From Bacteroidota bacterium (lineage in GTDB: Bacteria > Bacteroidota > Bacteroidia > Chitinophagales > Saprospiraceae): a stretch of DNA of 64,000 nt. Positions 2,090 through 61,051 of this stretch are shown piece after piece (within the stretch, counting starts at the first letter, position 1; every line of letters starts with the position of its first letter). The notes under the pieces were generated by a model. It was not told the origin of the DNA, searched no databases, and saw only the letters and a list, made by a program, of their open reading frames with translations. Made by a program: the position numbers and the translations under genes. The stretch lies in assembly GCA_046051005.1 (NCBI GenBank), contig JBJOPA010000264.1:38755-102754 (forward strand), in the 5' to 3' direction.

Positions 2090-3334
2090 TTATTTTTTAT
2101 TTGGATAATCATAGACTTCTCGCACATATTCAAAGCGTTGTGCGATAAAATCACGGACAACCAAAAGGCTTTTTTGCGGAGAAATGGCTTGGATATAATA
2201 AAATTCTGGAATCCGTTTGTCAATCGTATTGCCGCCATTTTCGTTGATATAATTGGCGATGGCTTCCAAATTTGCATCTTTATTAAATTTTAACGTCACA
2301 TCAAACGCATCTTCAACGGCTTTGTCATCTGCACCTGAAATTGGGTTCAGAATTTTCCCCGTTGCCTCGACCTTAAATTTCGATTTTACGGCTTCAATGA
2401 CGGCTTCAATTTTGTCGCGCCCATGCGCCCGATTGCGTTTCACAACTTTTTCGATGTCTTCGTCCGACATTTTTCCCTTGATGGGCGTGTTTTCAACCAC
2501 TCGGAACGTCACAGACGGTAAATGTTGAAAACGCCCGCCCATGAACAACAACTGGAAATGTTCTGCCAATTCGCTCTCAATCAAATCGGGCGGAAATGCG
2601 CTCGAAATTTTGAAATTATAGAGGTAATGCGGTGCGCCGCCGCCGTCTATTTTTGCGGCAATTTCTTTGATATTCGCATTGATTTGTTTTGTATTGCGTT
2701 CAAACTGTTCACATTCTGGATTGATGGAAAGTTCATCAGCTTTTTCGGACGAATTGAGCCAAAAACTGAGTGACCATTGTTGACCACAATGATGTGCATA
2801 AGCTCTGTTATTGTCCAATAATGCTTCTAATTCCCTGATTTTTGCCGTATCTTTGAGGTAAACGATGCCATTGTTGCGGGTTTTGTTGTCGGCTTGCCTT
2901 GCGTTTCGCAAAATTACGAAATTGGCAGGCGGCGCGGCAGCAAGGTTACGCTTTTCCTTTTTTTCTAATTTCAATTCCTTTTTTTCTGGCTTTTTTTCTG
3001 GATTTTTTTCTTCTGGAATTGCTGTAATTTTCTCTTTCACTGGCACGATTGCTATTGAATCGGTGGCAATTTTTGCTGTCGAATCGGGTTGAATTGGAGC
3101 AGTTTTGGCAACCGAAATACCAGAATCTAGCGCAACAACAACGGGATTTTCGACGCGCAAAATCGTATCTTTTTTGACCGTGTTGGAATCCAAAATCGGC
3201 AAATCTGGCTTCGGAATGACTGCCAAAACGCTGCTATCTTGCGCAGATACTGGGGGGGGGGCAAAAAAGAGGCAACAAAAAAAACTATAAAAAACAAAAG
3301 CAAAATGACGTGTATTTTTTCTCGATTTCAACAT
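2090..3334 (-). CDS. hypothetical secreted protein with a Lys/Glu-rich low-complexity linker
   Basis: Long ORF of 414 aa. It has an N-terminal hydrophobic signal-like segment ending ...PPPVSAQD and a PEKKPEKKELKLEKKEKR tract. I recognise no catalytic motif. Confidence 0.6.
   Translation of the reverse strand: MLKSRKNTRHFAFVFYSFFCCLFFAPPPVSAQDSSVLAVIPKPDLPILDSNTVKKDTILRVENPVVVALDSGISVAKTAPIQPDSTAKIATDSIAIVPVKEKITAIPEEKNPEKKPEKKELKLEKKEKRNLAAAPPANFVILRNARQADNKTRNNGIVYLKDTAKIRELEALLDNNRAYAHHCGQQWSLSFWLNSSEKADELSINPECEQFERNTKQINANIKEIAAKIDGGGAPHYLYNFKISSAFPPDLIESELAEHFQLLFMGGRFQHLPSVTFRVVENTPIKGKMSDEDIEKVVKRNRAHGRDKIEAVIEAVKSKFKVEATGKILNPISGADDKAVEDAFDVTLKFNKDANLEAIANYINENGGNTIDKRIPEFYYIQAISPQKSLLVVRDFIAQRFEYVREVYDYPNKK
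3247..3261 (-). repeat. CAGTAT-box copy 3 (ATACTG10) inside a CDS
   Basis: It lies in the signal-peptide region of ORF 2090..3334 and is read as FFAPPPVSA. Confidence 0.9.
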
Positions 3335-3683
3335 GGTTATGGACTTTTTTTCTGGGTAGAAATGAAATTTAGTGGTTTTGCAACGCGCTTTGGCAACGTT
3401 TGCGAAAAGTTAAAAATGATTGTTAATAAGTTGTAAACAAATTCAGCAACAAATTTTGACAAAAGCATCGGAATTACAAAATTTTTCAGCACTTTTTTTT
3501 GCCATCACATCAAAATATATTTTAACAAAATAAATCATTTAAAAAAAATATTTATAAAACCTATGTTTTAAATGATTTACATAAAATTTTTAATATTATT
3601 TTATAAAAAAATATGTAAATAAAAATAAATAACAACACTTTTTTGAAAACTTATTTTTTGCAAGGCGATGACAAAAAAATGGC

Positions 3684-3691
3684 TATTTTTG
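3684..3691 (+). promoter_or_regulatory. Bacteroidota-type -7 box TATTTTTG upstream of purH
   Basis: It matches the TAnnTTTG consensus of the Bacteroidota primary sigma factor. It lies 38 nt before the ATG. Confidence 0.5.
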
Positions 3692-3728
3692 CGATGTTTT
3701 TTTTCTAAAAATTAATTATCAAAATAAG

Positions 3729-7144: not shown

Positions 7145-7155
7145 CCCCCCAGTAT
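7145..7155 (+). repeat. CAGTAT-box copy 6, intergenic
   Basis: AAAAAAGGCTACCCCCCAGTATAT, 20 nt after the folB stop. Confidence 0.9.
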
Positions 7156-7241: not shown

Positions 7242-8351
7242 TTAAGCAGTTAACATTTTCACAAAATTGTCGAACAAGTATTGCGCATCGTGTGGACCAG
7301 GCGATGCTTCGGGGTGATATTGGACAGAAAAAGCCCGTTTTCCGCGCAGACTGATGCCTTCAATCGTATCGTCGTTGAGGTTGCGATGGGTGATTTCGAT
7401 GGTGTCCGATTTTTGGCGAATCACGTCAGGGTCAACGCCAAAACCGTGATTTTGACTCGTAATTTCACAGCGATTGGTCAACAAATTCAACACGGGGTGA
7501 TTGATGCCGCGATGCCCATTGTGCATTTTATACGTCGGCACGCCCAATGCCAATGCCAGCAACTGATGCCCCAAACAAATGCCAAAAAGTGGTTTTTCAG
7601 TTTTCAAAATTTGTTGCACCGTTTCGACGGCATAACCCATTGCCGCAGGGTCGCCCGGTCCGTTGGAAAGGAAAAATCCGTCTGGATTCCAAGCCGCAAT
7701 TTCAGAAAAAGGCGTTTTGGCAGGAAACACTTTTAAATAACAATCTCGTTGCGAAAAATTATTCAAAATACTTCGTTTTACCCCAAAATCAAGGACGGCA
7801 ACGCGATATTTAGCGGTTGATTGCCCCCAAAAATAGGGTTGCGCGGTCGTCACGCGAGACGAAAGTTCCAATCCGTCCATCGAAGGCGTGGCATCGAGCT
7901 TCAATTGTAGGATTTCGAGGTCAAAAATTTCGGAGGAAATGATGGCGTTCATGGCTCCTTTGTTGCGGATATGCCGCACGATTGCCCGCGTATCCACGTC
8001 GCTGATGCCCACCATTTCTTGATTTTCAAAATAGGTTTGCACGTCGCTGTCTGCCATCGGTCGGGCATACTGGGGGGTGAAATTTTTGCAGACCAAACCT
8101 GCGATTTGCATTTTTTCGGCTTCGACTTCGGTGTTTTTAACGCCGTAATTGCCGATGTGGGCGTTGGTGGTCACCATGATTTGCCCGAAATAAGAAGGGT
8201 CGGTAAAAATTTCTTGATAGCCCGTCATGCCCGTGTTGAAGCAGATTTCGCCTGTCGTGGTGCCGATTTTGCCCGCCGCTTTGCCTTGAAAAACCGTTCC
8301 GTCTGCCAACAACAAGACGGCTGGTTTTGATTGATTGCTCGTCAAATTCAT
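7242..8351 (-). CDS. carA: carbamoyl-phosphate synthase small (glutaminase) subunit
   Basis: 369 aa. N-terminus LLLADGTVFQGKAAG. The class I GATase catalytic Cys is in GICLGHQLL, followed by HRGINHPV and VQYHPEASPGPHD. Confidence 0.95.
   Translation of the reverse strand: MNLTSNQSKPAVLLLADGTVFQGKAAGKIGTTTGEICFNTGMTGYQEIFTDPSYFGQIMVTTNAHIGNYGVKNTEVEAEKMQIAGLVCKNFTPQYARPMADSDVQTYFENQEMVGISDVDTRAIVRHIRNKGAMNAIISSEIFDLEILQLKLDATPSMDGLELSSRVTTAQPYFWGQSTAKYRVAVLDFGVKRSILNNFSQRDCYLKVFPAKTPFSEIAAWNPDGFFLSNGPGDPAAMGYAVETVQQILKTEKPLFGICLGHQLLALALGVPTYKMHNGHRGINHPVLNLLTNRCEITSQNHGFGVDPDVIRQKSDTIEITHRNLNDDTIEGISLRGKRAFSVQYHPEASPGPHDAQYLFDNFVKMLTA
8067..8077 (-). repeat. CAGTAT-box copy 7 inside carA
   Basis: GCATACTGGGGGGTG. 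On the coding strand it reads CACCCCCCAGTATGCC = TPQYA. Confidence 0.85.
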
Positions 8352-8520: not shown

Positions 8521-8535
8521 CCCCCCCCCCAGTAT
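8521..8535 (+). repeat. CAGTAT-box copy 8 (C10AGTAT), intergenic
   Basis: AAAAAACGCCCCCCCCCCAGTATAT, between the divergent carA and ugd genes. Confidence 0.9.
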
Positions 8536-10162: not shown

Positions 10163-10228
10163 AAAAATGCTACCCCCCAGTATCCAACCCCATTTTGGCG
10201 GTTTTATACTGGGGGGTAGCATTTTTTA
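10163..10228. repeat. CAGTAT-box palindromic pair (copies 9 and 10)
   Basis: AAAAAATGCTACCCCCCAGTAT (10163-10184), a 22-nt spacer, then ATACTGGGGGGTAGCATTTTTT (10207-10228). The 22-nt arms are perfect. It lies just distal to a separate canonical ugd terminator. Confidence 0.95.
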
Positions 10229-11913: not shown

Positions 11914-11926
11914 CCCCCCCCAGTAT
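11914..11926 (+). repeat. CAGTAT-box copy 11 (C8AGTAT), intergenic
   Basis: CCAAAAAACGCCCCCCCCAGTATCCAA, 13 nt after the guaB stop. Confidence 0.9.
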
Positions 11927-11969: not shown

Positions 11970-12506
11970 GTGAGAAAAATAGTTGTTTTGATGATTTTGA
12001 TGGGGCAATTTTGGGCTTGTCGGCAACCTGTTTTGCCAACCGACAACCCTGAATTGGTGTTGAAAAAAATGTTCCCAAATAGCAGCGATTTTGAATGTGA
12101 TACGTTAGAAAACAACGATTTGATGTTCAGTTTTGTAGCAGATGGCTACAATTCGTCCGCCATTTTCGGAAGAGATAGTACTTTTAAAAATGATAAAAAT
12201 GTTGCCCAAAAATTGCAAGAAGTGCAGCAAAATTGGGATTTTACCTTGCTTCCAACCGAAGTTTTGACGGGTGTAAAATCTTTTTTTAAAGATTTTGACG
12301 CGGAAAATGTGATAAATTTGGACAAAATCAGCCGATATACTGGGGGGGGGGCATTGGAAGGCATTTTTTATGATATTGAATACGATGATGGTGAAAACCT
12401 CGTCATTGTGCAATTTGATGCGAAAGGCAAACTCATTCAACAAAACAAAATCAAACTTTCTGACCTCGAAATTCAACAAAAAGAGGAAGAAGGCGTTGAA
12501 GATTAA
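11970..12506 (+). CDS. hypothetical small secreted protein or lipoprotein
   Basis: 178-aa ORF with a GTG start and an N-terminal hydrophobic segment ending ...FWAC. No recognisable domain. Contains one motif copy (RYTGGGALEG). Confidence 0.5.
   Translation: MRKIVVLMILMGQFWACRQPVLPTDNPELVLKKMFPNSSDFECDTLENNDLMFSFVADGYNSSAIFGRDSTFKNDKNVAQKLQEVQQNWDFTLLPTEVLTGVKSFFKDFDAENVINLDKISRYTGGGALEGIFYDIEYDDGENLVIVQFDAKGKLIQQNKIKLSDLEIQQKEEEGVED
12337..12351 (-). repeat. CAGTAT-box copy 12 (ATACTG10) inside a CDS
   Basis: Inside ORF 11970..12506, read as RYTGGGAL. Confidence 0.9.
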
Positions 12507-13888: not shown

Positions 13889-13902
13889 CCCCCCCCCAGT
13901 AT
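13889..13902 (+). repeat. CAGTAT-box copy 13 (C9AGTAT), intergenic
   Basis: GTAAAAATGCCCCCCCCCAGTATAT, 18 nt after the hisS stop. Confidence 0.9.
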
Positions 13903-16440: not shown

Positions 16441-16454
16441 ATACTGGGGGGGGG
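16441..16454 (-). repeat. CAGTAT-box copy 14 (ATACTG9), intergenic
   Basis: TTATACTGGGGGGGGGCTATTTT, 6 nt downstream of the ROK kinase stop on the minus strand. Confidence 0.9.
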
Positions 16455-19557: not shown

Positions 19558-19623
19558 AAAAAAGACCACCCCCCAGTATCAACGCTCAAAAAAGGGCTTG
19601 GATACTGGGGGGTGGTCTTTTTT
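19558..19623. repeat. CAGTAT-box palindromic pair (copies 16 and 17)
   Basis: AAAAAAGACCACCCCCCAGTAT (19558-19579), a 22-nt spacer, then ATACTGGGGGGTGGTCTTTTTT (19602-19623). It starts 17 nt after the stop of the substrate-binding protein gene. Confidence 0.95.
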
Positions 19624-20245: not shown

Positions 20246-20875
20246 ATGGAAGAAATTTTGAATTATTTCCCGAATCTCACGCCGCAACAAGTGGCGCAAT
20301 TCGAGCAACTGATGCCGCTTTACGTAGAATGGAATGAAAAAATAAACGTCATTTCGCGAAAAGACATCGAAAATTTGTATCGTCACCACGTGCTACATGC
20401 GTTGGCGATTGCAAAATTTGTAGATTTTAAGCCCGATGCCCATATTTTGGACTTGGGTACTGGGGGGGGCTTCCCGGGCATTCCGTTGGCGATTATTTTT
20501 CCAGAAACACAATTTTATTTGACCGACAGCATCGGCAAAAAAATAACGGTCGTCAAGGCGGTTGCCGAAGCGTTGGATTTGAAAAACGTAACCGCCCACC
20601 ATGTGCGGGCAGAAGAAGTGAAAGAAAAATTTGATTTTGTGATAACCCGCGCCGTTGCTACGTTTGACCAATTGGCGCGTTGGTCTTTGCGGTCGCTCAA
20701 AAAAAAGCACATTCATGCCTATCCAAACGGCATTATTGCGCTCAAAGGTGGAAATATTAAAGAGGAAATGCGTTTATTGCCGTTTCGACCTTATTACGAA
20801 GTGCAACCGATTAAAAAATATTTTCCATTCGACTTTTTTGATGAAAAATATATTGTCTATTTACAAGGACATTAA
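20246..20875 (+). CDS. rsmG: 16S rRNA (guanine527-N7)-methyltransferase
   Basis: The GidB-family SAM motif is LDLGTGGGFPGIPLAI, followed by VITRAVA. About 209 aa. Confidence 0.88.
   Translation: MEEILNYFPNLTPQQVAQFEQLMPLYVEWNEKINVISRKDIENLYRHHVLHALAIAKFVDFKPDAHILDLGTGGGFPGIPLAIIFPETQFYLTDSIGKKITVVKAVAEALDLKNVTAHHVRAEEVKEKFDFVITRAVATFDQLARWSLRSLKKKHIHAYPNGIIALKGGNIKEEMRLLPFRPYYEVQPIKKYFPFDFFDEKYIVYLQGH
20458..20469 (-). repeat. Variant copy 18 (gTACTG8) inside rsmG
   Basis: GGTACTGGGGGGGGC encodes the GTGGG of the SAM-binding loop. It may be coincidental or an exapted copy. Confidence 0.4.
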
Positions 20876-21029: not shown

Positions 21030-23150
21030 ATGAGAATAAAAAACTGGTTTTTGACCGCCGCTATACTGGGGGGGGGGCATTTTTCGAGCCTCGTGCAAGC
21101 GCAAGACGCATGGAACATCACGGCAAAAAATATTGATGCCCAAAAGTATTACGGCGTGACCGTTGCCAATGGCATGGTGGGCATCATTTCGTCGCCCAAA
21201 CCATTGCAGGTTCAAGAAGTGGTGTTGAACGGTGCATTTGACCTCTACGGTCGTGGTCGCGTATCAAATATTTTGAAAGTATTTAGTTTTGCAAATATGC
21301 GACTGGAAGTTGCTACGCCAAACCAAACAAAAATTGGAAACATCGCCGCCAGCGATGCAGGAACGTATGGCAATTCGAGCATGGTGGGCACGGGAAATAT
21401 CTCCAATTTTGTTCAGAATTTGGACATGAAAAACGCCATGTTGACAACGACATTCGATTTTAAAGACATTTTGTCGGTGCGTCAAAACATGATGGCGTTG
21501 CGACATTTGCCCCATTCGGCGTTGATAGAAATGGAAATTACGGCAAAAAAAGACTGTGAAATCACGCCGTACAGCGTCATCGAAACGCCTGATAATCTAA
21601 AAGATGTAAAAAATTATTATTGGGAAATTGTGCGTCCACACGCCTACGTTCCGTTGATGACGAGCGTTGCAAAATCGCCTACGGGCAAATTGACCGCCGC
21701 CGTTTCCAACTCCATTTTGTTTGACGACGAAACCAACACGCCGAAAATTATCCACGAAGAATGGGACAACGGCATGCACTTGATGAAATTCACGAAACGC
21801 TTGAAAGCAGGCGAAACGTTCCGTTTTTCGGTCGTAGGTTCGGTCATTTCGACGGCACAAACCGCCGACCCACACAACGAAGCCGAACGCATGACCATTT
21901 TTGCGGCACTCGAAAAACGCAAACGCTTGCGTCAGCAACACGAAACGGCGTGGGCAAAATTGTGGGAATCGGACGTGTTGGTAGAAGGCGATGCGCCAGC
22001 GCAACAAGCGATTCACTCGGCATTGTACCATTTGTACAGCTTCGTACGCGAGGGAACGGGCTATTCGATGTCGCCGATGGGCTTGTCGGGATTGGGTTAT
22101 AACGGACACGTTTTTTGGGATACTGAACTTTGGATGTATCCTCCGCTCTTGGCATTGCACCCCGAAATGGCAAAATCAACGATGGAATATCGGTTCAAAG
22201 GTCTAGAAAAAGCAAAACTCAACGCATCAGGCTACGGCTACAAAGGGGCAAAATTCCCTTGGGAAGGCGATGATACGGGTCAAGAGTCGTGTCCAGTTTG
22301 GGCGTTGACGGGTCCGTTTCAACACCATATTACGGGTTGTGTTGGCTATTCTATGTGGAAATATTATCAAGTGTCGAAAGACAAAGAATGGTTAAAAACA
22401 CGTGGTTATCCTGTGTTGAAAGAAGTGGCGGATTTTTGGTCAAGTCGGGCAGAGTTGGGTTCGGACGGAAAATATCACATCATCAACGTTGTTTGTGCCG
22501 ACGAATGGGCGGAAAATGTGGACGACAACGCTTTCACAAATGGCATTGCAAAAACCGTTTTGTTATACGCCACCCAAGCCGCCGCCGAAATTGGCGAAAA
22601 AGCCGACCCGAAATGGAAAACCGTAAGCGACGGAATCGTGATTTTGAAATTGCCCAACGGCGTAACCCGTGAACATGCGAGTTACGAAAAACAAATTATC
22701 AAGCAAGCAGACGTAAATTTGTTGAGTTATCCACTCAATTTGGTGACTGATGCGGCGACGATAAAAAAAGATTTAGATTTTTATTGGGAACGTTTGGGCG
22801 ACAATCAACCGAATGGAAAAGGTTCGTCACCTGCGATGGCGCACGCGATTTTTTGTATTTTGAATGCCCGTTTAAACAATACCGATGTGGCGTATAAACA
22901 ATTTATGGACGCGCACAAACCCAACGAAGTGCCACCTTTCGGCGTTTTGTCGGAAACGGCGGGTGGAACGAATCCGTATTTTGCGACGGGTGCGGGCGGA
23001 TTTTTGCAAACGCTCATCAATGGTTTTGGTGGCTTGGAAATCACGGACGAAGGGATTGTTCAAAAATATCAACCCAAATTGCCAAAACATTGGAAATCCT
23101 TAACCATCAAAGGCGTGGGGTACGAAAAGAAGACTTTTGTTATTAAATAG
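21030..23150 (+). CDS. secreted glycoside hydrolase family 65-like protein
   Basis: Signal peptide. The central (alpha/alpha)6 signature is GYNGHVFWDTELWMYPPLL, and the 706-aa length fits. Substrate and hydrolase-versus-phosphorylase chemistry cannot be decided from the sequence. Confidence 0.7.
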   Translation: MRIKNWFLTAAILGGGHFSSLVQAQDAWNITAKNIDAQKYYGVTVANGMVGIISSPKPLQVQEVVLNGAFDLYGRGRVSNILKVFSFANMRLEVATPNQTKIGNIAASDAGTYGNSSMVGTGNISNFVQNLDMKNAMLTTTFDFKDILSVRQNMMALRHLPHSALIEMEITAKKDCEITPYSVIETPDNLKDVKNYYWEIVRPHAYVPLMTSVAKSPTGKLTAAVSNSILFDDETNTPKIIHEEWDNGMHLMKFTKRLKAGETFRFSVVGSVISTAQTADPHNEAERMTIFAALEKRKRLRQQHETAWAKLWESDVLVEGDAPAQQAIHSALYHLYSFVREGTGYSMSPMGLSGLGYNGHVFWDTELWMYPPLLALHPEMAKSTMEYRFKGLEKAKLNASGYGYKGAKFPWEGDDTGQESCPVWALTGPFQHHITGCVGYSMWKYYQVSKDKEWLKTRGYPVLKEVADFWSSRAELGSDGKYHIINVVCADEWAENVDDNAFTNGIAKTVLLYATQAAAEIGEKADPKWKTVSDGIVILKLPNGVTREHASYEKQIIKQADVNLLSYPLNLVTDAATIKKDLDFYWERLGDNQPNGKGSSPAMAHAIFCILNARLNNTDVAYKQFMDAHKPNEVPPFGVLSETAGGTNPYFATGAGGFLQTLINGFGGLEITDEGIVQKYQPKLPKHWKSLTIKGVGYEKKTFVIK
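21063..21077 (-). repeat. CAGTAT-box copy 19 (ATACTG10 + CATTTTT) inside the GH65-like gene
   Basis: It lies in the signal peptide and is read as AILGGGHF. Confidence 0.9.
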
Positions 23151-23200
23151 CCCCCCTCAATCCCCTCAAAAGGGGGAAGTCAGTCTTCCTTTGGAGGGCT
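23151..23200 (-). repeat. Family-2 G/C-rich repeat, copy a
   Basis: CCCCCCTCAATCCCCTCAAAAGGGGGAAGT... is the reverse complement of ACTTCCCCCTTTTGAGGGGATTGAGGGGGG. It starts at the first base after the GH65-like stop codon. Confidence 0.8.
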
Positions 23201-27459: not shown

Positions 27460-27472
27460 CCCCCCCCAGTAT
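27460..27472 (+). repeat. CAGTAT-box copy 21 (C8AGTAT), intergenic
   Basis: AAAAAAAAAAGTACCCCCCCCAGTATG, upstream of the adhesin start. Confidence 0.9.
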
Positions 27473-28674: not shown

Positions 28675-28675
28675 A

Positions 28676-28689
28676 ATACTGGGGGGGGG
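28676..28689 (-). repeat. CAGTAT-box copy 22 (ATACTG9 + CGTTTTTTT), intergenic
   Basis: It directly abuts family-2 repeat copy d. It lies 27 nt downstream of the kynA stop on the minus strand. Confidence 0.9.
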
Positions 28690-29786: not shown

Positions 29787-29797
29787 ATACTGGGGGG
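29787..29797 (-). repeat. CAGTAT-box copy 23 in the meaB-kynA intercistronic gap
   Basis: GGATACTGGGGGGTATCATTTTTTT. The extended arm overlaps the last codons and stop of meaB (…SKK*). Confidence 0.9.
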
Positions 29798-34179: not shown

Positions 34180-34193
34180 ATACTGGGGGGGGG
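34180..34193 (-). repeat. CAGTAT-box copy 27 (ATACTG9), intergenic
   Basis: AAATACTGGGGGGGGGCTATTTT, between the helicase start and the stop of ORF 34300..35505. Confidence 0.9.
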
Positions 34194-35669: not shown

Positions 35670-35680
35670 ATACTGGGGGG
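35670..35680 (-). repeat. CAGTAT-box copy 29, intergenic
   Basis: TTATACTGGGGGGTAGCATTTTTT, preceded by a degenerate family-2 repeat. Confidence 0.9.
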
Positions 35681-38102: not shown

Positions 38103-38117
38103 AACCATTATTGGTTC

Positions 38118-38167
38118 AAAAAAAAGTTGTGAATAAGCAAATATTTGTTTATTCACAACTTTTTTTT
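38118..38167 (+). terminator. hemD terminator
   Basis: AGTTGTGAATAA ... TTATTCACAACT, flanked by A8 and T9. Confidence 0.8.
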
Positions 38168-38173
38168 GCTTTT

Positions 38174-38187
38174 ATACTGGGGGGGGG
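38174..38187 (-). repeat. CAGTAT-box copy 30 (ATACTG9 + CATTTTTT), intergenic
   Basis: It lies immediately after the hemD terminator hairpin. Confidence 0.9.
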
Positions 38188-40831: not shown

Positions 40832-40845
40832 CCCCCCCCCAGTAT
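40832..40845 (+). repeat. CAGTAT-box copy 31 (C9AGTAT), intergenic
   Basis: CAAAAACATGCCCCCCCCCAGTATAT. It lies just after the terminator hairpin of gene 38233..40737. Confidence 0.9.
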
Positions 40846-41939: not shown

Positions 41940-41950
41940 CCCCCCAGTAT
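41940..41950 (+). repeat. CAGTAT-box copy 32, intergenic
   Basis: AAAATAGCCACCCCCCAGTATAT, between the -7 box and the start of the M23 peptidase gene. Confidence 0.9.
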
Positions 41951-42004: not shown

Positions 42005-43843
42005 ATGAAACACTTCCCTACATTTCTGACTGTTTGCGCGGCGGCTGCGCTTTTTTTGTCTTTCGACAATCCGAAAAAAGCGGTGCGCGACTATCCAAAA
42101 GATTTTTTTCAAAGTCCCGTTCCGCATAGCGTCAGCATTTCGGGTTCGTTTGGCGAGCTGCGTCCCAACCATTTTCATTCGGGAATTGACATTCGCCCCG
42201 CGAGTTCGGGCGTGACGGAACCGATTTTGGCGGCGGGCGATGGCTACGTTTCGCGCATCAAAATTGCGCCGTCGGGCTACGGAAATGCGCTCTACATCAC
42301 GCATCCCAACGGCTATGTCACCGTCTATGGGCATCTCGACCGCTACGCGACGGCGATTCAAGAATATGCACGAAAAAAACAATACGAACAAGAGTCTTTT
42401 GAGGTTGACCTCACGCCCGCGCCCAACGAATTGCCCGTTTCCAAAGGGCAACAAGTGGCGATGATGGGAAATACAGGGCATTCGTTTGGCATGCACCTAC
42501 ATTTCGAGATTCGAGATGCCGCGACCGAAGAAACCGTCAACCCGTTTTTATTTGGCATTTCGCCTGCCGACCACATCGCGCCGTCCATGCAATCGTTGAA
42601 AATTTATTTGCTCAACGAAAAAAATGAAGTCACGGGCAGCCAATTTGCCAGCGTCCGAAAAACAAGCGGCAATCAATATACAATTGATGGAAATTTATTA
42701 AGTTTAAATGCTGCGAAAGTGGCTTTTGCCCTCAAAACTTTTGACCGACACGATGGCGATAGCGGCGAAAATGGCGTTTTCAGCATCGAAACACAGCGCG
42801 ATGACCAAACCATTCATCGCTTTGTGGCGGAAAGATTTAGTTTTTCTGAAACCCGTTACATCAATGCACACCTTGATTTTCAAGAACAAAATAGCCGAAA
42901 AGCCTTGCTCAATCGCTTGTGGAGACTGCCCGGAAATCAACTTTCGATGTACGAATCGGAAGTCAATGCGGGTATCGTTGACCTTTCGGCTACGCCCGCT
43001 CGCATGCACGTGACCGCTCGCGATGTCGCAGGAAATGCCGCTACGCTCGATTTTCAAGTTGCGTCTTCTGGAAATGGCATTTCATTGCCCCCCCCCAGTA
43101 ATTATCAATATTTGTTGCCCGTAAACGAAGAAAGTATTGTAAAAATTGAAGGTGCGACAATTTATTTTCCTAAAAATGCTTTATACGAAAATTTATATTT
43201 AAAACTTACTGCCACCAATAATGTGGGAAGTTCTAATACGTTTTCGCAAACGATTCATGTTCACGACGTGCTTACGCCCGTTCACGCGCCGTTTAAAATT
43301 GGACTTCGTGCCGATAATTTGCCGCCCGAACTGCAATCGAAGGCATTTATCGGTTATTGTCGCCGCAGCGATGGAAATATTTATACCATCGGCGGAAAAT
43401 TTGATGCCGCAACAGGTTTATGGACGGGGCAATCTGACAAATTTGGAAATTTTTGCGTCATGACCGACCAAATTGCGCCGCGTGTACAAACCCTCAATTT
43501 GCCCGAAAAAATTAATTCAGAAAATGGACGAATTTCTTTTAAAATAAATGACAATTTTGAAGCGATGGGAGCCGAAGCATCGAACCTGAAATTTCGAGCG
43601 ACGATTGATGAGGATTGGATTTTGATGGAATATGAACAAAAAAGTGATATGATTTGGCACAAGTTTTCAGGTGATATTGCGGACGGGAAACATCGTTTCA
43701 AATTGGTGGTGACCGACCCATGCGGCAATGAAACGGTGATTGAGAAGGAAATTGAATTAGATGACGATGTCCACGCAACGGTCAAAAAAGCATCGAAACC
43801 TAGTAAAAAATCATCAAAACCTACAAAAAAGAAGAAAAAATAA
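42005..43843 (+). CDS. M23-family metallopeptidase with a large C-terminal extension and a Lys-rich tail
   Basis: HFHSGIDIR and MGNTGHSFGMHLHFEI are the HxxxD / HxH zinc ligands. Signal peptide present. I chose the ATG at 42005; the ORF track starts at a TTG at 41996. Confidence 0.85.
   Translation: MKHFPTFLTVCAAAALFLSFDNPKKAVRDYPKDFFQSPVPHSVSISGSFGELRPNHFHSGIDIRPASSGVTEPILAAGDGYVSRIKIAPSGYGNALYITHPNGYVTVYGHLDRYATAIQEYARKKQYEQESFEVDLTPAPNELPVSKGQQVAMMGNTGHSFGMHLHFEIRDAATEETVNPFLFGISPADHIAPSMQSLKIYLLNEKNEVTGSQFASVRKTSGNQYTIDGNLLSLNAAKVAFALKTFDRHDGDSGENGVFSIETQRDDQTIHRFVAERFSFSETRYINAHLDFQEQNSRKALLNRLWRLPGNQLSMYESEVNAGIVDLSATPARMHVTARDVAGNAATLDFQVASSGNGISLPPPSNYQYLLPVNEESIVKIEGATIYFPKNALYENLYLKLTATNNVGSSNTFSQTIHVHDVLTPVHAPFKIGLRADNLPPELQSKAFIGYCRRSDGNIYTIGGKFDAATGLWTGQSDKFGNFCVMTDQIAPRVQTLNLPEKINSENGRISFKINDNFEAMGAEASNLKFRATIDEDWILMEYEQKSDMIWHKFSGDIADGKHRFKLVVTDPCGNETVIEKEIELDDDVHATVKKASKPSKKSSKPTKKKKK
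43088..43100 (+). repeat. Variant copy 33 (C9AGTAaT) inside the M23 peptidase gene
   Basis: TTGCCCCCCCCCAGTAATTAT, read as LPPPSNY. The last core position differs. Confidence 0.5.
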
Positions 43844-43845: not shown

Positions 43846-43911
43846 AAAAAATATTACCCCCCAGTATAAAACCCCAAAAAAGCGGAAATATACTGGGGGG
43901 TATCATTTTTT
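43846..43911. repeat. CAGTAT-box palindromic pair (copies 34 and 35)
   Basis: AAAAAATATTACCCCCCAGTAT (43846-43867), a 22-nt spacer, then ATACTGGGGGGTATCATTTTTT (43890-43911). It starts 3 nt after the M23 stop and is followed by a separate canonical hairpin at 43933-43977. Confidence 0.9.
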
Positions 43912-46604: not shown

Positions 46605-46615
46605 CCCCCCAGTAT
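46605..46615 (+). repeat. CAGTAT-box copy 36, intergenic
   Basis: AAAAAAAGATACCCCCCAGTATGG, downstream of the stop of the TolB-like gene (minus strand). Confidence 0.9.
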
Positions 46616-47924: not shown

Positions 47925-47935
47925 ATACTGGGGGG
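47925..47935 (-). repeat. CAGTAT-box copy 37, intergenic
   Basis: GCATACTGGGGGGTAGTTTTTTTT, in the divergent promoter region between the TolB-like and ABC ATPase genes. Confidence 0.9.
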
Positions 47936-48762: not shown

Positions 48763-48773
48763 ATACTGGGGGG
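48763..48773 (-). repeat. CAGTAT-box copy 38, intergenic
   Basis: ATATACTGGGGGGTAGCCTTTTT. It starts 3 nt after the ABC ATPase stop. Confidence 0.9.
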
Positions 48774-50146: not shown

Positions 50147-50195
50147 AAAAAATACCCCCAAAATCGGTCGGATACTGGGGGGTATTGTTTTTTTT
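50147..50195 (-). repeat. CAGTAT-box copy 39 (G-form at 50172-50182) in a half-decayed palindrome
   Basis: AAAAAATACCCCC...GGATACTGGGGGGTATTGTTTTTTTT. AATACCCCC pairs with GGGGGTATT. It lies downstream of the methyltransferase stop on the minus strand. Confidence 0.85.
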
Positions 50196-51002: not shown

Positions 51003-51016
51003 CCCCCCCCCAGTAT
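51003..51016 (+). repeat. CAGTAT-box copy 40 (C9AGTAT), intergenic
   Basis: CAAAAAATGCCCCCCCCCAGTAT is followed by the hairpin TCCAAGCC...GGCTTGGA. It lies between skp and the methyltransferase gene. Confidence 0.9.
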
Positions 51017-51784: not shown

Positions 51785-51795
51785 CCCCCCAGTAT
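51785..51795 (+). repeat. CAGTAT-box copy 41, intergenic
   Basis: CACTACCCCCCAGTATC, upstream of the skp start. Confidence 0.9.
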
Positions 51796-51952: not shown

Positions 51953-53719
51953 TTATTCGCTATAAATCCACCAATTGGCTCCGTCGCTGATAATTTTATA
52001 TTTTTTTGCAAAAGCGAGGCTGCTCACATCGGTGGTTTCGGTGAGTTTTAACGCGGGCGAAAATGTGACGAGATTTATGGTTTCGTCCGATTTTCCGACC
52101 ACATACGTTCGTCCGACACAACTGATCGGCAAGGGCAAGGTCAATGTTATAGGCGCATTGGTCGCGTTTGCCAACACGATGTGATTGGTTTCGTCGAGTG
52201 TCCAATCGGCAGTGGTGCGCATAAAACTCATGCCGACCGAACCGTTGATTTGCAAAGTCGAATTGGGCGTGCTGGTTCCGATGCCAATTTTTCCATCGTT
52301 TCGGATAATCATTTTTTGAGTCGGAACCGCTGACCCGATGGGCGAAGTGAAAAATTGAATATTTCCAGGCATGTCTCCTGCGCCAATCGCATCGTCACTT
52401 GCCATTACAATTTTTGCAGCTTTCTGAAAATTTGCGCCGTCATACGCCTCCGCCTCGAAAGACGCGATGCTACCGCCCGTAAAAATCGTTGGCGCAAGGT
52501 CTGTTCCATTCGATTTTCTGACGCGAATGGTCGAAAAATCGGTTCCGTAAGACGTTAAATCCACATCGGCATTGAAATTATAGGTTGCCGTTCCGCGCAC
52601 GTCTAACATTTGTGCGGGCGTATTGATGCCAATGCCCGTTTTTCCGCCCAAATAATTGATATCGTCAATACCCGTTTGATACACGCCAAAACCGTTGGTC
52701 GCCAACACATCGCCTACAAAAATTCCGTATCCGTTTGTAATCGTCGCGCTGCCGCCCTTGCTAAATTCGCTATAAACGCCATACGCATTGGTGATGGTTC
52801 CCGTTCCCGCCGCTTGCACGCGGGCATAGACGCTACGCGCATTGGAAATCACGCCGCCCGAACTGTTCGACACCATGCCTCGAATCCCGATGGCACTCGT
52901 GAACGCACCAAAACTATTGTTATTCGCAATATTATCGCTGCCATAAGCCGTAGAAATTGTCCCAGAACTTCTGTTTTCTGCCAACGAATTGATACCCGTC
53001 AAAATGCTTACCGCGCCAGTTCCTGAATATTTTGCGTCGGCAGCCGATGCCACCAACGTAGAATTGGCAACGTTGTTGGACGAAGAACGCAACAAATGAT
53101 ACCCCCCAGTATAAGTCGTCGTCGCCGCACTCGTCGGCGTGACGGTCGTGTTGGACAACCAACCACTGTGGTCCCAAACATTGATAAAAGAAGCGGCATT
53201 GCTGATGGTGTCTATCAATTGTGAAAATGGGGTAGCGGCGGCGGTGGTTCCCGACACATGCAATTTTGCCGAAGGCGCAGTCGTGCCAATCCCCAAAAAA
53301 CCTGTCGAAGACAAACGCATTTGCTCCGAATTGCTGGTTCTAAACGCCAAATCTTGCGCGTTTGTGGTTCCTAAAAAATTGGTGGTTGGGTTGGTGTTGC
53401 TGTTTCCCGTCAGACTCCACGCGCCCAAACTGCTGGGGTCGCACATGCTTTGCCACGTCGAATTGCGATAAACCCAAATGCAATGGGTAGTCGTATTATA
53501 AATTTGTAAACCATTTGCGGGGCTGGAAATTGCCGTCATGTCGGCAGTGGTCATGCGCGGGAGCAAAAAACCACGATTGACACTTTCGATTTCTACGATT
53601 GCCGATGGATTTTTGGTGCCTGGATTGTCGCCAAATTTGACTTGCGCCGTCGCCACATTCCACAGAAAGAAAAGGCTCAAAACACCAAAGGATTTTAAAG
53701 TTTTTATATTCGTACTCAT
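51953..53719 (-). CDS. hypothetical secreted fibre-like repeat protein
   Basis: 588-aa ORF with a signal peptide. A GIG(T/I)xxPxxxLx(V/I)xG motif recurs three times (LGIGTTAPSAKLHVSG, TGIGINTPAQMLDVRG, KIGIGTSTPNSTLQINGS). Between these lie Gly/Ser/Thr/Asn-rich ~20-aa repeats. Confidence 0.55.
   Translation of the reverse strand: MSTNIKTLKSFGVLSLFFLWNVATAQVKFGDNPGTKNPSAIVEIESVNRGFLLPRMTTADMTAISSPANGLQIYNTTTHCIWVYRNSTWQSMCDPSSLGAWSLTGNSNTNPTTNFLGTTNAQDLAFRTSNSEQMRLSSTGFLGIGTTAPSAKLHVSGTTAAATPFSQLIDTISNAASFINVWDHSGWLSNTTVTPTSAATTTYTGGYHLLRSSSNNVANSTLVASAADAKYSGTGAVSILTGINSLAENRSSGTISTAYGSDNIANNNSFGAFTSAIGIRGMVSNSSGGVISNARSVYARVQAAGTGTITNAYGVYSEFSKGGSATITNGYGIFVGDVLATNGFGVYQTGIDDINYLGGKTGIGINTPAQMLDVRGTATYNFNADVDLTSYGTDFSTIRVRKSNGTDLAPTIFTGGSIASFEAEAYDGANFQKAAKIVMASDDAIGAGDMPGNIQFFTSPIGSAVPTQKMIIRNDGKIGIGTSTPNSTLQINGSVGMSFMRTTADWTLDETNHIVLANATNAPITLTLPLPISCVGRTYVVGKSDETINLVTFSPALKLTETTDVSSLAFAKKYKIISDGANWWIYSE
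53102..53112 (+). repeat. CAGTAT-box copy 42 inside ORF 51953..53719
   Basis: On the coding strand it reads ACTTATACTGGGGGGTAT = TYTGGY. Confidence 0.85.
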
Positions 53720-53851: not shown

Positions 53852-53864
53852 CCCCCCCCAGTAT
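53852..53864 (+). repeat. CAGTAT-box copy 43 (C8AGTAT), intergenic
   Basis: AAAAAAATACGCCCCCCCCAGTAT. It directly abuts family-2 repeat copy e. Confidence 0.9.
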
Positions 53865-53918
53865 TTTCCCCCCTCAATTTCCTTTCTTCCTCCCTTCGGG
53901 GGGATTGGAGGACGAAAG
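53864..53918 (+). repeat. Family-2 repeat, copy e (composite)
   Basis: TTTTCCCCCCTCAATTTCC...CTTCCTCCCTTCGGGGGGATTGGAGGAC. An inverted partial arm plus a full arm, fused to CAGTAT-box copy 43. Confidence 0.7.
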
Positions 53919-55292: not shown

Positions 55293-55358
55293 AAAAAAGC
55301 CTACCCCCCAGTATCCAAACCACTTTTTCGGTTCGGATACTGGGGGGTAGGCTTTTTT
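55293..55358. repeat. CAGTAT-box palindromic pair (copies 44 and 45)
   Basis: AAAAAAGCCTACCCCCCAGTATCC (55293-55316), an 18-nt spacer, then GGATACTGGGGGGTAGGCTTTTTT (55335-55358). The 24-nt arms are perfect. It lies between the CHU_C gene start and the CBS gene stop. Confidence 0.95.
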
Positions 55359-55393: not shown

Positions 55394-56050
55394 TTAAATG
55401 CTCAAATAATTGAGCAACATATCATAATTTTCTTTCAAATCGTTGATGTAATCTTCTTCTGTAAACGACGCTTTGACGATGTAGCCGAATCGGACAAAAG
55501 TTGCCAAAATGCGCTGAATATCTGGACGACTGATTTTGAGCGTAACCTCCAATTCGGTGGTGTCGGGCGCAGAAGTCACGAAGGAATTTAGGACAAACGC
55601 ATTTTCAGATTCTACAATACGTGCAATTTGCGAAAGCGAATAATTCTGACGATTTACTTCCAACACAATCACCGCGCCATGCTCGGCAAAGGCTGCACTT
55701 TTTGCAAAAAATTGCAACAAATCGTAGAGCGTAATCACGCCTAAATATTTGTTTTCGAGGCTTACGACTGGCACAAGCGTCAATTTATGCTGATTAATTT
55801 GCCGCATGACCTCGTAAATGTGGTCGTTTTCGCGGGCATACTGGGGGGGGGCGAGTGCGTAGGTTTCGACGGCATCGTCGGGGTCGAAGTTCCAGATTTG
55901 TTCTTCGGCAAGCAACCCAATGATTTGTTCGTCGCGGACGATGGGCAAATGTCTGACGTGAAAATCATTCATCATTTGCAAGGCATCGTCGCCTGTCGAA
56001 GTCGGCTTGAGCGGAAATACTTCGCTCGAAATCAATTCTTTTGCAATCAT
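55394..56050 (-). CDS. CBS-pair domain protein with an ACT-like C-terminal domain
   Basis: Two CBS motifs are present (VRHLPIVRDEQIIGLLAEEQI, LTLVPVVSLENKYLGVITLYDLL). 218 aa. Confidence 0.75.
   Translation of the reverse strand: MIAKELISSEVFPLKPTSTGDDALQMMNDFHVRHLPIVRDEQIIGLLAEEQIWNFDPDDAVETYALAPPQYARENDHIYEVMRQINQHKLTLVPVVSLENKYLGVITLYDLLQFFAKSAAFAEHGAVIVLEVNRQNYSLSQIARIVESENAFVLNSFVTSAPDTTELEVTLKISRPDIQRILATFVRFGYIVKASFTEEDYINDLKENYDMLLNYLSI
55838..55851 (-). repeat. CAGTAT-box copy 46 (ATACTG9) inside the CBS-domain gene
   Basis: On the coding strand GCCCCCCCCCAGTATGCC is read as APPQYA. Confidence 0.9.
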
Positions 56051-57483: not shown

Positions 57484-57494
57484 ATACTGGGGGG
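57484..57494 (-). repeat. CAGTAT-box copy 47, intergenic
   Basis: ATATACTGGGGGGTCGCATTTTTTT, between the lpxH-like start and the metK stop. Confidence 0.9.
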
Positions 57495-58955: not shown

Positions 58956-58969
58956 CCCCCCCCCAGTAT
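58956..58969 (+). repeat. CAGTAT-box copy 48 (C9AGTAT) in the metK 5' leader region
   Basis: AAAAACTCCCCCCCCCAGTATCCGAGCC, 48 nt upstream of the metK ATG. Confidence 0.9.
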
Positions 58970-59171: not shown

Positions 59172-59193
59172 CAAACATTAAATAGCAGTTATT

Positions 59194-59976
59194 TTGGAAA
59201 AATTAGGTAAAATATTTATAAGAATTAGCGGAAAAAAGGGAAATTTTGACCTTTCTCCTCAAAATTTTGATATTCGAGAACTCGCCGAGCTGTTGCAGCA
59301 AGTCGAGCATTTACTGTTTGCCACCGCTAAAAAAGATCGCTCCCTTACTTCTTATCAAGTTTCGGAGGGTTCTGTAATCCATACATTTTCGACTACACAA
59401 CAAACTGCCATTAGTTTCAATGCGTGGTTGAGAAAAATTGAAAACGAAGATTATAGTCTCAATTTTTTAGAACCCGCTACTGCTCGTGCGTTTGAAGCAC
59501 TCGCCGCCAATGCGCGCAATAATGATTATTATTATCAAGTATATACATCAGTTTCTGATAATCATGCTTTTATCATTGACAAAAATACGAAATTTAAAAA
59601 AAATGAAGATATTTGGGTGGACGCTGAATTTTATCTTTACGGCACAATCGTAGATGCAGGGGGCAAAAACAGAGCCAATATCCATTTAGACACCAAAGAA
59701 TGGGGTGTGATAAAAGTCAGTGCTACGATTCAACAATTAGAATCATATGAGTTAAATCCGCTTTACAAATCATATGGCGTTCGCGTTTTAGGAAAGCAAC
59801 ATCTCAAAACGGGCGAAATGGATAAATCGTCGCTTCAATTGCTTGAAATGCAAGGTTTTCGACCCATTTTTGAAGAAGATTATATAAAAAGTTTAATTCA
59901 AAAAGCCAAAAAGAATTGGTCAGACGTGGACGACGCAGACCAATGGCTGAAAACAACACGCGGTTATGGAACTTAA
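59194..59976 (+). CDS. hypothetical protein, upstream partner of a PIN nuclease (candidate atypically large antitoxin or sensor)
   Basis: 260-aa ORF with a TTG start 23 nt downstream of a TATTTTTG -7 box. I recognise no domain. Its last 11 nt overlap the PIN gene start (ATGGAACTTAA). Confidence 0.6.
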   Translation: MEKLGKIFIRISGKKGNFDLSPQNFDIRELAELLQQVEHLLFATAKKDRSLTSYQVSEGSVIHTFSTTQQTAISFNAWLRKIENEDYSLNFLEPATARAFEALAANARNNDYYYQVYTSVSDNHAFIIDKNTKFKKNEDIWVDAEFYLYGTIVDAGGKNRANIHLDTKEWGVIKVSATIQQLESYELNPLYKSYGVRVLGKQHLKTGEMDKSSLQLLEMQGFRPIFEEDYIKSLIQKAKKNWSDVDDADQWLKTTRGYGT

Positions 59977-60445
59977 ATGTGTTTTGTTAGACACGAGCTT
60001 CCTCATCAGATTGCTCAATGAAAACGACCGATTGCATGAAAACGCCTTACAATATTATCGTTTTTTTCTAGAAAAAGGGGTAATATTGAAAGTTTCTACA
60101 ATTTCAATTGCAGAATATTGTGTGAAAGGAACGTTAGATGAATTGCCACTACGCGACGTGCAAATTTTGCCATTTAACATTGTTCATGCAACGAAAGCAG
60201 GCGACATGGCGCGCACCGTCTATCAACATAGAGACAAAACGGTATTGCCTCAACGATTGATTATTCCGAATGACACAAAATTATTTGCCCAAGCTGATGT
60301 TGAATCAAATATTCAAAAGTTTGTTACTTCTGACCAACAATGTCAAAATATCTTTAAACTGATTGAACTAAAATCAAAAGTAAATTTCGACATTTTAAAC
60401 ATTGAAACGCCCTATCACGAAGCATTTGGATTATTGAATTTATGA
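59966..60445 (+). CDS. PIN-domain ribonuclease (VapC-like)
   Basis: 159 aa. Acidic residues have PIN spacing: D9 (VLLDTSFLI), E50 (SIAEY), D103 (IPNDTKLFA), D122 (VTSDQQ). Confidence 0.75.
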   Translation: MELKCVLLDTSFLIRLLNENDRLHENALQYYRFFLEKGVILKVSTISIAEYCVKGTLDELPLRDVQILPFNIVHATKAGDMARTVYQHRDKTVLPQRLIIPNDTKLFAQADVESNIQKFVTSDQQCQNIFKLIELKSKVNFDILNIETPYHEAFGLLNL

Positions 60446-61051
60446 TTGAAGCATGTGGGCTTTCAAATAGGCTTCGATGTGTTGGGAAATATATTTTCCA
60501 ATAATATCAAATTCAATATTCACAAAATCGCCGACTTTTAATTGATGAAAAGTCGTGTTTTCAAAAGTAAAAGGGATAATCGCTACCGAAAATTCGCGGT
60601 CTTTGGGTTCGACCACCGTCAAACTCACGCCGTTGACCGTCACAGAGCCTTTCGGAACGAGAATATACTGGGGGGGGGCATCAAAAGCAAAACGAAACAG
60701 CCAACTGCCGTTTTCATCGCGTCTTTCGATGCATCGGGCGGTCGTGTCCACGTGACCTTGCACTTGATGTCCGTCGAGTCGTGCGCCTGCGACCATCGCC
60801 CGTTCAATGTTGATTTTATCGCCCGTTTTCAAGGCATTTAGATTCGTCAATCGTAGGGTTTCGGCAATTGCTGTGACGGTAAATACGTCGTCTTTGATGT
60901 CCACGACGGTCAAACAAACGCCGTTGTGCGACACGCTTTGGTCTATTTTGAGCGAATCGGTCAACGTAGAAGCAATGTCGAGATGGATATTTGTTCCTTC
61001 GGTGCGAATGGCGCGCACGGTCGCCAAATTTTCAATAATTCCAGTAAACAT
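60440..61051 (-). CDS. ribE: riboflavin synthase (alpha chain)
   Basis: MFTGIIE... with duplicated lumazine-binding repeats (SVSHNGVCLTV and SVTVNGVSLTV). 203 aa. Confidence 0.93.
   Translation of the reverse strand: MFTGIIENLATVRAIRTEGTNIHLDIASTLTDSLKIDQSVSHNGVCLTVVDIKDDVFTVTAIAETLRLTNLNALKTGDKINIERAMVAGARLDGHQVQGHVDTTARCIERRDENGSWLFRFAFDAPPQYILVPKGSVTVNGVSLTVVEPKDREFSVAIIPFTFENTTFHQLKVGDFVNIEFDIIGKYISQHIEAYLKAHMLQS
60665..60678 (-). repeat. CAGTAT-box copy 49 (ATACTG9) inside ribE
   Basis: On the coding strand GATGCCCCCCCCCAGTATATT is read as DAPPQYI. It aligns to a normal RibE segment and is not an insertion. Confidence 0.9.

Follow-up and report, generated by a model that had tools for sequence, protein, structure and literature searches.

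An exact ten-nucleotide word with two one-base dialects in Saprospiraceae-related genomes, a candidate uptake-signal-like sequence in the Bacteroidota

Abundance, form and spacing of the word

The word TACTGGGGGG (reverse complement CCCCCCAGTA) is present in 50 exact copies in a 64-kb stretch of DNA from a Bacteroidota bacterium (contig JBJOPA010000264.1 of assembly GCA_046051005.1, positions 38,755 to 102,754; the window below means the whole of this stretch), or about one copy every 1.3 kb. About one copy is expected in total, as dinucleotide-preserving shuffles gave a mean of 1.0 even with up to one mismatch permitted. We see a roughly even chance that the word is the core of a lineage-specific double-stranded DNA recognition sequence, an uptake or recombination signal like the uptake signal sequence (USS) and the DNA uptake sequence (DUS), and prefer this reading because its features match the published behaviour of USS and DUS point by point. 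Slightly less probable than that, in our judgement, is the fuller proposal that this is the first DNA-uptake-signal system outside Proteobacteria, belonging to a Saprospiraceae-related clade and with its signal, ATACTG(A/G)GGGG, already split into two dialects.

The core was derived by reading the coordinates cited in an initial annotation of this DNA and then counting exact matches. The copies are interleaved on the two strands (26 + and 24 −). As with known uptake sequences, this is a short, specific, non-palindromic word which occurs about once per kb, far above chance, and within the window it is neutral with respect to replication and transcription, with 8 sense and 9 antisense copies in coding DNA.

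When the copies were aligned, an A- or T-run was seen on the upstream side at −14 to −10, and position −1 was A in 47 of the 50. The core is followed by GGGC, TAGC or TGGC, then by A and a run of five to six T at +15 to +20, and a second A/T-rich stretch lies on the far 3' side at +25 to +31. The extended form is therefore an A/T tract, 9 nt, ATACTGGGGGG, GGGC/TAGC/TGGC, A and T5-6. The G-run is six long in 24 copies, seven in two, eight in five, nine in 14 and ten in five, and 50 of the 52 TGGGGGG strings in the window are part of TACTGGGGGG. Spacing of the copies is much more even than random (coefficient of variation 0.53 against 0.97, with 0 of 20,000 simulations as low), and the widest gap between them is 3.2 kb, compared with 6.0 kb expected.

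Copies inside genes

Seventeen copies lie within 16 real genes; where genes are named, Pfam supports the identity. The initial annotation had claimed 14-17 genes. All 15 coding copies and peptides listed there are real, with coordinates right to within 1–3 nt, and two are additional to it: one in rsmG/GidB (LGTGGGFPG, 20458) and one in the gene of a large adhesin (AAPPVA, 24304). The coding copies are given below with their position, strand and orientation to the gene (ORF, open reading frame; SAM, S-adenosylmethionine).

3248..3257, +, antisense, signal peptide FFAPPPVSA of ORF 2090..3334, G10; orthologous copy in sibling locus L039
4328..4337, +, sense, purH inter-domain linker SDTGGV; orthologous to a dialect-2 copy, NTEGV, in locus L042
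5422..5431, −, antisense, pepC signal peptide LLPPSM
8068..8077, +, antisense, carA variable loop FTPQYA
12338..12347, +, sense, ORF 11970..12506, YTGGGA, G10; orthologous copy in L039
17285..17294, +, antisense, ROK kinase loop DAPPPVF
20458..20467, +, sense, rsmG/GidB SAM-binding motif LGTGGGFPG, G at −1, no indel
21064..21073, +, sense, GH65 signal peptide AILGGGHF, G10
24304..24313, +, antisense, 1372-aa adhesin, AAPPVA, C at −1
30550..30559, −, sense, meaB ENTGGRG; three codons more than in 17 orthologues
30791..30800, +, antisense, meaB N-terminal tail KNAPPQYP; three codons more
32387..32396, −, sense, UvrD/PD-(D/E)XK helicase-nuclease, NILGGGIK
35053..35062, −, sense, ORF 34300..35505, LDTGGY
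43091..43100, −, antisense, M23 peptidase outside the catalytic domain, LPPPSNY, T at −1
53102..53111, −, sense, ORF 51953..53719, YTGGY
55839..55848, +, antisense, CBS-domain protein, LAPPQYA; variable positions
60666..60675, +, antisense, ribE DAPPQYI

The word had been described as translated in all three frames and both orientations. Five of the six combinations are used, but the sense reading TAC-TGG-GGG (Y-W-G) never is; this frame reads as a stop (TAC TGA) in the dialect word of relatives described below. There are six copies read as xT-ACT-GGG-GGG, two as xTA-CTG-GGG-GGx, two as CCC-CCC-AGT, four as xCC-CCC-CAG-TAx and three as xxC-CCC-CCA-GTA, and a bias in frame usage was not significant for these 17 copies (counts 6, 2, 0, 2, 4, 3; hand-calculated chi-square about 7.4, 5 degrees of freedom). 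Codon choice in the motif zone departs from that elsewhere in the window's genes: GGG makes up 20 of 23 Gly codons against 8%, CAG all four Gln codons against 12%, and ACT eight of nine Thr codons against 12%.

The placement of copies at permissive sites, also proposed in the initial annotation, is seen for three signal peptides, the N-terminal tail of meaB, the purH inter-domain linker and the ROK loop, but it does not extend to rsmG, where the copy overlies the functionally conserved GxGxG motif that binds SAM. The three N-terminal copies, in ORF 2090..3334, pepC and the GH65 gene, are in sequence judged by eye to be signal-peptide-like. Nine coding copies have runs of G9–G10, with G10 at 3248, 12338, 17285 and 21064, and G9 at 30791, 32387, 43091, 55839 and 60666.

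Conservation in a sibling genome

The sibling locus L039 (GCA_965192095.1) encodes a PurH 95% identical to that of the window and shares 89.7% nucleotide identity with it over 13.6 colinear kb. It carries 18 copies of TACTGGGGGG in 19.9 kb. All 12 of the window copies within the overlap have an orthologous copy, and 0 of 120 core nucleotides differ; divergence between the two is 16.8% in intergenic DNA and 22.5% at third codon positions. The copies are kept between these related genomes beyond the neutral expectation. The conserved footprint extends from −1 to +9; identity is 90% in the T-run and 69–86% elsewhere in the flanks. At the inverted pair 10173/10207 divergence is seen in the spacer, and both the cores and the outer flanks are kept.

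An extra copy is present in the histidine-kinase gene of L039, where AAT ACT GGG GGG GTA (NTGGV) corresponds to AAT ACA GGC GGC ATA (NTGGI) in the window. The two differ by three synonymous changes and one I/V change, and the NTGG peptide is kept. No mosaic recombination tracts were found between the window and L039: the two diverge evenly by about 10% throughout, and their longest identical stretch is near expectation. G-run lengths are identical for coding copies common to the two, and vary for intergenic ones (G8/G9, G10/G9).

A one-base dialect in relatives

Loci of relatives were fetched via MeaB and PurH homologues and grouped from a PurH tree (neighbour-joining, unbootstrapped). A dialect word, TACTGAGGGG, which differs from TACTGGGGGG by one transition (A/G) at position 6, was found in several of them, and the counts of the two words were as follows.

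Window's branch (window, L039): TACTGGGGGG 50 per 64 kb and 18 per 19.9 kb; TACTGAGGGG 0
Two other subclades (L040, L041, L042, L048): TACTGGGGGG 0; TACTGAGGGG 15, 22, 18 and 19 per ~21 kb
Sister clade (L043, L046): TACTGGGGGG 0; TACTGAGGGG 0
Outgroup (L047): TACTGGGGGG 0; TACTGAGGGG 0
Other loci, mostly Bacteroidota (L006–L038; 33 loci): TACTGGGGGG 0; TACTGAGGGG 0

Among the loci examined the dialects are mutually exclusive, and the word has, as uptake sequences do, clade-specific dialects and is absent outside the clade. The two closest MeaB relatives (L004 and L005, 72% and 71% identity) are without TACTGGGGGG; their word is TACTGAGGGG, with an inverted pair among its copies. Of the 74 copies in the dialect-2 loci, 64 (86%) are inside ORFs, the same as the coding fraction, and here the word ignores gene boundaries altogether. 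One-off variants in these loci number 15 per 74 exact copies.

Three sites are orthologous across the dialects, namely both meaB sites and the purH linker. The TACTGAGGGG copies at both meaB sites of L004 and L005 encode the ancestral T-E-G-G and P-S-V (APPSV), without an indel. In the purH linker, the window (D-T-G-G) and L042 (N-T-E-G) have copies that coincide in position and orientation, reading ACT GGG GGG and ACT GAG GGG respectively. Parsimony on the unbootstrapped neighbour-joining tree suggests that dialect 2 is ancestral and that the form in the window is derived. A 1-nt deletion between the dialects was set aside in favour of the single A/G transition, which needs no frame change.

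The purH linker also carries copies at the same position but in opposite orientations in L040 (10588, −, T-P-S-V) and L042 (10588, +, N-T-E-G), which therefore point to independent acquisition at a permissive hotspot. This inter-domain linker varies in length by up to ~20 residues across the clade.

The initial annotation had taken the nucleotide word, and not any one peptide, to be what is selected. The rare codons, the conservation in L039, the synonymous extra copy, the even spacing and the one-letter dialect of the relatives all bear this out, and DNA-level selection on the word is supported.

Intergenic copies and inverted pairs

Coding sequence makes up 85–86% of the window, yet 33 of the 50 copies are intergenic and the coding ones are a minority. 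Two of these 33 fall in artefact ORFs and were counted as intergenic: 19603 is upstream of the Pfam-supported start of DHFR, and 47926 is within an unsupported ORF of 91 aa. Density per kb is 8.4 in convergent gaps, 3.6 in tandem gaps, 1.9 in divergent gaps and 0.31 in coding DNA. At least one copy is present in 27 of the 40 intergenic gaps, and five of the seven divergent promoter regions hold one. The intergenic copies are listed here by position and strand.

415..424, +, orthologous copy in L039
2031..2040, −, convergent genes; abuts a 16-bp terminator-like hairpin at 2040-2075
7145..7154, −, convergent genes
8525..8534, −, divergent genes
10173..10216, inverted pair (10173− / 10207+), hairpin −47.7 kcal/mol, A6/T6 flanks
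11916..11925, −, 14 nt past the IMPDH stop
13892..13901, −, convergent genes
16442..16451, +, 8 nt past the ROK stop, antisense to the transcript
19569..19612, inverted pair (19569− / 19603+), hairpin −54.3 kcal/mol
27462..27471, −, intergenic
28677..28686, +, a second G-rich hairpin element before it
29788..29797, +, 2 nt past the meaB stop
34181..34190, +, intergenic
35671..35680, +, divergent genes
38175..38184, +, beside a −28 kcal/mol hairpin
40835..40844, −, convergent genes
41940..41949, −, divergent genes
43857..43900, inverted pair (43857− / 43891+), hairpin −30.5 kcal/mol, convergent genes
46605..46614, −, intergenic
47926..47935, +, divergent genes, inside the spurious 91-aa ORF
48764..48773, +, 3 nt past the ABC ATPase stop
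50173..50182, +, intergenic
51006..51015, −, abuts a −22 kcal/mol hairpin
51785..51794, −, intergenic
53854..53863, −, intergenic
55304..55347, inverted pair (55304− / 55338+), hairpin −55.9 kcal/mol
57485..57494, +, intergenic
58959..58968, −, divergent genes
63573..63582, −, upstream of the H+-PPase gene

Hairpins with energies between −30 and −56 kcal/mol (z-scores −6 to −11) are predicted for the four inverted pairs (10173/10207, 19569/19603, 43857/43891 and 55304/55338); bordered by A6 and T6, they resemble bidirectional intrinsic terminators. On predicted folding, the pairs would thus act as terminators in the way that paired uptake sequences do. Single copies form no hairpin of their own, their folding energy being near the shuffled mean, while those at 2031, 7145, 38175 and 51006 adjoin independent hairpins. 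Single intergenic copies in tandem gene pairs are six co-oriented and seven anti-oriented with transcription (counted by hand). An Rfam scan of the window gave no family match.

Origin of the coding copies

Alignment of the host proteins indicates that the copies have a mixed origin, by substitution and by short in-frame length change. The ribE copy had been attributed to substitution without insertion, and this was confirmed against five solved riboflavin synthases. The copies in rsmG, in the CBS protein (compared with AcuB structures) and the PurH ILRG copy of L041 (GCA_016787525.1) are also free of indels, and the carA copy involves no net length change relative to the E. coli enzyme. Both meaB copies, in contrast, are 3-codon in-frame gains relative to all 17 aligned orthologues, the loop with the ROK copy is 4–6 residues longer than in solved homologues, and the purH copy is in the hypervariable, indel-rich inter-domain linker. 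The claim made for ribE is right but not valid for every copy, because the meaB, ROK and purH copies sit in length-variable sequence; substitution is not the sole route. No target-site duplication was found at the meaB length gains beyond the 2–3 nt of the run itself, and the ROK copy has none beyond its run either.

A possible uptake signal

If the word is an uptake signal, a surface DNA receptor of the natural-transformation machinery would prefer fragments that carry it, and we infer that the recognising machinery may be such a DNA-uptake receptor. Homologous recombination of the imported fragments would act as a molecular drive, spreading new copies and repairing decaying ones. Copies would build up where they are tolerated: between genes, in signal peptides, linkers and loops, and in peptides compatible with the word from the outset (NTGG, GTGGG). 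New ones would come from point substitutions and now and then from small in-frame changes of length. Even spacing would follow because each imported fragment needs a copy. A shift in receptor specificity, with the genomic copies following it, could have given two dialects, with most of the clade carrying TACTGAGGGG and the branch of the window TACTGGGGGG, and the inverted pairs may have been co-opted as bidirectional terminators.

Several observations weigh against an uptake signal. There are no one-mismatch variants of TACTGGGGGG beside the 68 exact copies of the window and the 19.9-kb L039 locus, and this is a pattern not obviously predicted by a balance of mutation and drive. Long G-runs in genes are prone to frameshifts and usually avoided; a G6–G10 homopolymer core is mutationally costly, and nine of the coding copies have G9–G10. 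The intergenic density of the word is ~12 times its coding density, which would also fit a role at gene boundaries. We know of no uptake signal described so far from outside the Proteobacteria, and the proposal concerns an uncultured lineage represented by metagenome-assembled genomes (MAGs) only. No competence genes were seen, though the sequence covered comprised only the window and loci of up to 21 kb. For USS, the choice of reading frame is correlated with preferred codons (PMC2817400), but the coding copies here are built from rare ones.

The all-or-none exactness of TACTGGGGGG is left unaccounted for by every model considered. Together with the G-run core, this exactness may point to a new genome-wide DNA-recognition system unrelated to uptake.

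Alternative explanations

The word could instead be bound by a chromosome-maintenance or nucleoid protein inside the cell, each copy being kept by ordinary purifying selection. We consider this rather unlikely. A structuring protein, a loading site, or a mark of self DNA read by a nuclease or helicase (Chi-like and orientation-independent) were the candidates. It would suit the exact and perfectly conserved cores without degenerate copies, the even spacing of about one copy per gene, the phased A/T tracts beside the core, which suggest DNA bending, and the AddA/RecB-like helicase-nuclease encoded in the window; HIP1 is moreover an example of a hyper-abundant word that is not known to serve in uptake. 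However, the 26:24 interleaved strands argue against sites of the Chi type and of the FtsK-orienting polar sequence (KOPS) type, and the known sites of nucleoid proteins are degenerate, none being known to impose itself on genes at a cost in rare codons and G9–G10 runs. The replacement of one dialect by another with orthologous sites retained is also a documented pattern of uptake sequences (PMC3630211).

A primary role as a transcription signal, either an intrinsic or bidirectional terminator or a gene-boundary element, with the coding copies incidental, appears improbable. The intergenic location of 33 of 50 copies and the peak of density between convergent genes are what it would give, as are the T5-6 run after the core, the very stable hairpins with A and T runs of the four inverted pairs, and the terminator-like hairpins which some single copies abut. 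Yet the single copies have no hairpin of their own and are randomly oriented to the transcript (6 to 7), five of seven divergent promoter regions hold a copy, no Rfam family matched in the window, and 17 copies of the window and 86% of those of the other dialect are within coding sequence. DUS and USS are likewise enriched in terminators, where inverted pairs form a hairpin (bioRxiv 10.1101/2025.10.24.684340), and the terminator-like features are better read as a secondary use.

An active insertional process, by a miniature mobile element or by templated oligonucleotide insertion of ~9–12 nt, is very improbable. The two meaB copies are indeed 9-nt in-frame gains compared with all orthologues, the ROK and purH copies are in lengthened loops or linkers, and all copies are identical with none degenerate. 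No target-site duplication extends beyond 2–3 run bases, however, and a stretch of ten bases is too short to encode or delimit a mobile element. All 12 sites compared are occupied in both siblings without presence/absence polymorphism, the lone difference having arisen by point substitutions; the flanks have diverged by 17–30% around intact cores, and the copies are therefore old and not a recent burst. The ribE, rsmG, CBS and L041 purH ILRG copies are without an indel, and carA is unchanged in net length.

Chance, compositional bias, assembly artefact or peptide selection has a negligible probability: poly-G can be a sequencing artefact and the rsmG copy does encode a conserved GxGxG, but 50 copies against about one, reading frames open across G6–G10, the recurrence of the same copies in independent assemblies (NCBI, JGI, ENA and Logan) and five different peptide readings with rare codons rule these out as general causes.

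Comparison with known systems

Neisseriaceae DUS have clade-specific dialects one or two bases apart (PMC3630211), and 34.5–65% of USS and DUS copies are in ORFs, at poorly conserved residues, the figure for DUS of N. meningitidis being 34.5% (PMC2817400). The word of the window resembles DUS in its non-palindromic core of 10–12 nt, its frequency of about one per kb equally on both strands, its share of 34% in ORFs of the window, its terminator-like inverted pairs and its dialects differing by one base. It differs in its unrelated sequence (GCCGTCTGAA compared with TACTGGGGGG), its phylum, the G6–G10 homopolymer and the lack of one-mismatch variants; DUS systems also have a ComP receptor, a pilus and an uptake bias, whereas this word is known from sequence alone.

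USS consist of a core followed by phased A/T-rich tracts and have two family-level variants, Hin-type and Apl-type; Haemophilus genomes carry many one-off USS. Similarities to USS are the intragenic copies in several frames at poorly conserved residues, the even spacing and the phased A/T tracts after the core, and differences are the rare codons, the absence of one-off copies in the window and L039, the unrelated sequence and the taxon.

HIP1, the cyanobacterial palindrome GCGATCGC, is short, exact, hyper-abundant in coding and non-coding DNA, lineage-restricted and, like the word here, plainly kept at the level of DNA; it has been linked to a methyltransferase site and its function is unsettled. 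Unlike HIP1, the present word is asymmetric and has A/T-tract flanks, inverted pairs forming terminator-like hairpins and a one-base dialect. Chi and KOPS or SpoIIIE recognition sequences (SRS) are over-represented G-rich asymmetric words of 5–8 nt, strongly skewed to the leading strand and read by RecBCD/AddAB or FtsK. The word shares with them a G-rich, asymmetric, over-represented form, and an AddA-like gene is present in the window, but it shows no co-orientation, with 26 + and 24 − copies interleaved across 64 kb; Chi and KOPS are unlikely because of this lack of strand skew.

The repetitive extragenic palindromic (REP) sequences and REPINs, which are mobilised by REP-associated tyrosine transposases (RAYT), are short intergenic repeats with imperfect palindromes and inverted doublets that form hairpins near gene ends. 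The four inverted pairs are a point of likeness. The core, however, is asymmetric, single copies are unfolded, and 17 copies (34%) in the window and 86% in relatives are in frame within genes; no RAYT gene was seen in the fetched DNA. Miniature inverted-repeat transposable elements (MITE) and insertion sequences (IS) differ in that here no duplication of the target was seen at the meaB length gains beyond run bases, the sibling has a copy at all 12 sites compared and the one difference in copies came about by substitution. The initial annotation had likened the word to USS and DUS and set it apart from REP, MITE and IS elements; the likeness holds for its behaviour only, and the hallmarks of MITE, IS and REP were not found.

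Organism, wider scans and significance

By Pfam the genes of the window are of Bacteroidota type (CHU_C domains of type IX secretion, DUF4271 and DUF5916). MeaB and PurH are 100% identical to RL757_1972 and RL757_1952 of a MAG named 'Bacteroidota bacterium', and the next named relatives are Saprospiraceae MAGs. A scan of genome contigs with MeaB returned mostly Aquimarina and distant Saprospiraceae loci, none with the word. Metagenome contigs gave no match to a 21-mer; 53 single-hit stretches found with a 17-mer were rejected as chance, with at most two core copies each and no dialect-2 copy. A scan of IMG/VR gave two single matches, which is no evidence of the word in known phages, and an NCBIfam scan of unannotated ORFs gave nothing relevant. 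In the literature, no uptake sequences were found linked to Bacteroidota and neither word was found in the context of a bacterial genome. The word appears to be undescribed and may be an uptake-sequence-like element in a new phylum.

In textbooks, DNA uptake with a sequence bias is a peculiarity of two proteobacterial families, and it informs ideas on bacterial 'sex', species barriers and molecular drive. If the word is an uptake signal, this would be a third independent case, in the Bacteroidota, and sequence-biased uptake would be seen to evolve repeatedly. It would also imply a new DNA receptor in a phylum without reported uptake specificity, for which the natural dialect pair (A or G at position 6) would allow a search by comparative genomics, and the word could be used as a sequence tag for assigning metagenomic contigs to the clade. 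Even without a role in uptake, an exact 10-mer in essential genes that is conserved over ~20% neutral divergence is a good case of DNA-level selection set against a protein-level cost.

Neighbouring genes and other repeats

A UvrD-helicase/PD-(D/E)XK nuclease fusion (AddA/RecB-like, 1069 aa, 30886-34095, −) adjoins meaB and carries the word. No clear AddB partner for it was identified in the window. Its neighbour, an ORF of 401 aa (34300-35505, −) without a family match, carries the word as well. Neither Pfam nor NCBIfam gave a match for eight ORFs of 159–588 aa (NCBIfam alone for that of 159 aa), and four of the eight carry an in-frame word; they include 2090-3334, 11970-12506, 13995-15284, 15527-16237, 34300-35505, 51953-53719 and 59194-60445.

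A near-perfect hairpin of ~24 bp, AAAAAAAAGTTGTGAATAAGCAAATATTTGTTTATTCACAACTTTTTTTT (38115-38172, −28 kcal/mol), lies between hemD and the DUF5916 gene, just upstream of the copy at 38175. There is also a second G-rich repeat family of ~4–5 copies (23145-23185, −; 27575-27612; 27665-27702; 28640-28676; 53877-53910, −), with the form ACTTCCCC(C)TTTT(C)GGGGGG-ATT(T)GAGGGGGG-(A/C)TAT, that is a CCCC/GGGG hairpin, then TTGAGGGGGG. Of L039 and the other relatives' loci examined, only L048 had a match to it, a single weak one. Its tail, TTGAGGGGGG, resembles the dialect word of the relatives, (C)TGAGGGGGG.

The word-free relatives have intergenic hairpins of another make. In L046 these are inverted arrays of tandem 7–8-mers with CTAACCGA repeats (5900-5985, 6981-7012 and 12139-12220), and in L047 they have CGTAATTGA and AGTTATGAG/AAGTTATA repeats (7375-7430, 9946-9977 and 13588-13680). 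These tandem 7–8-mer hairpins are a different, lineage-specific kind of intergenic repeat.

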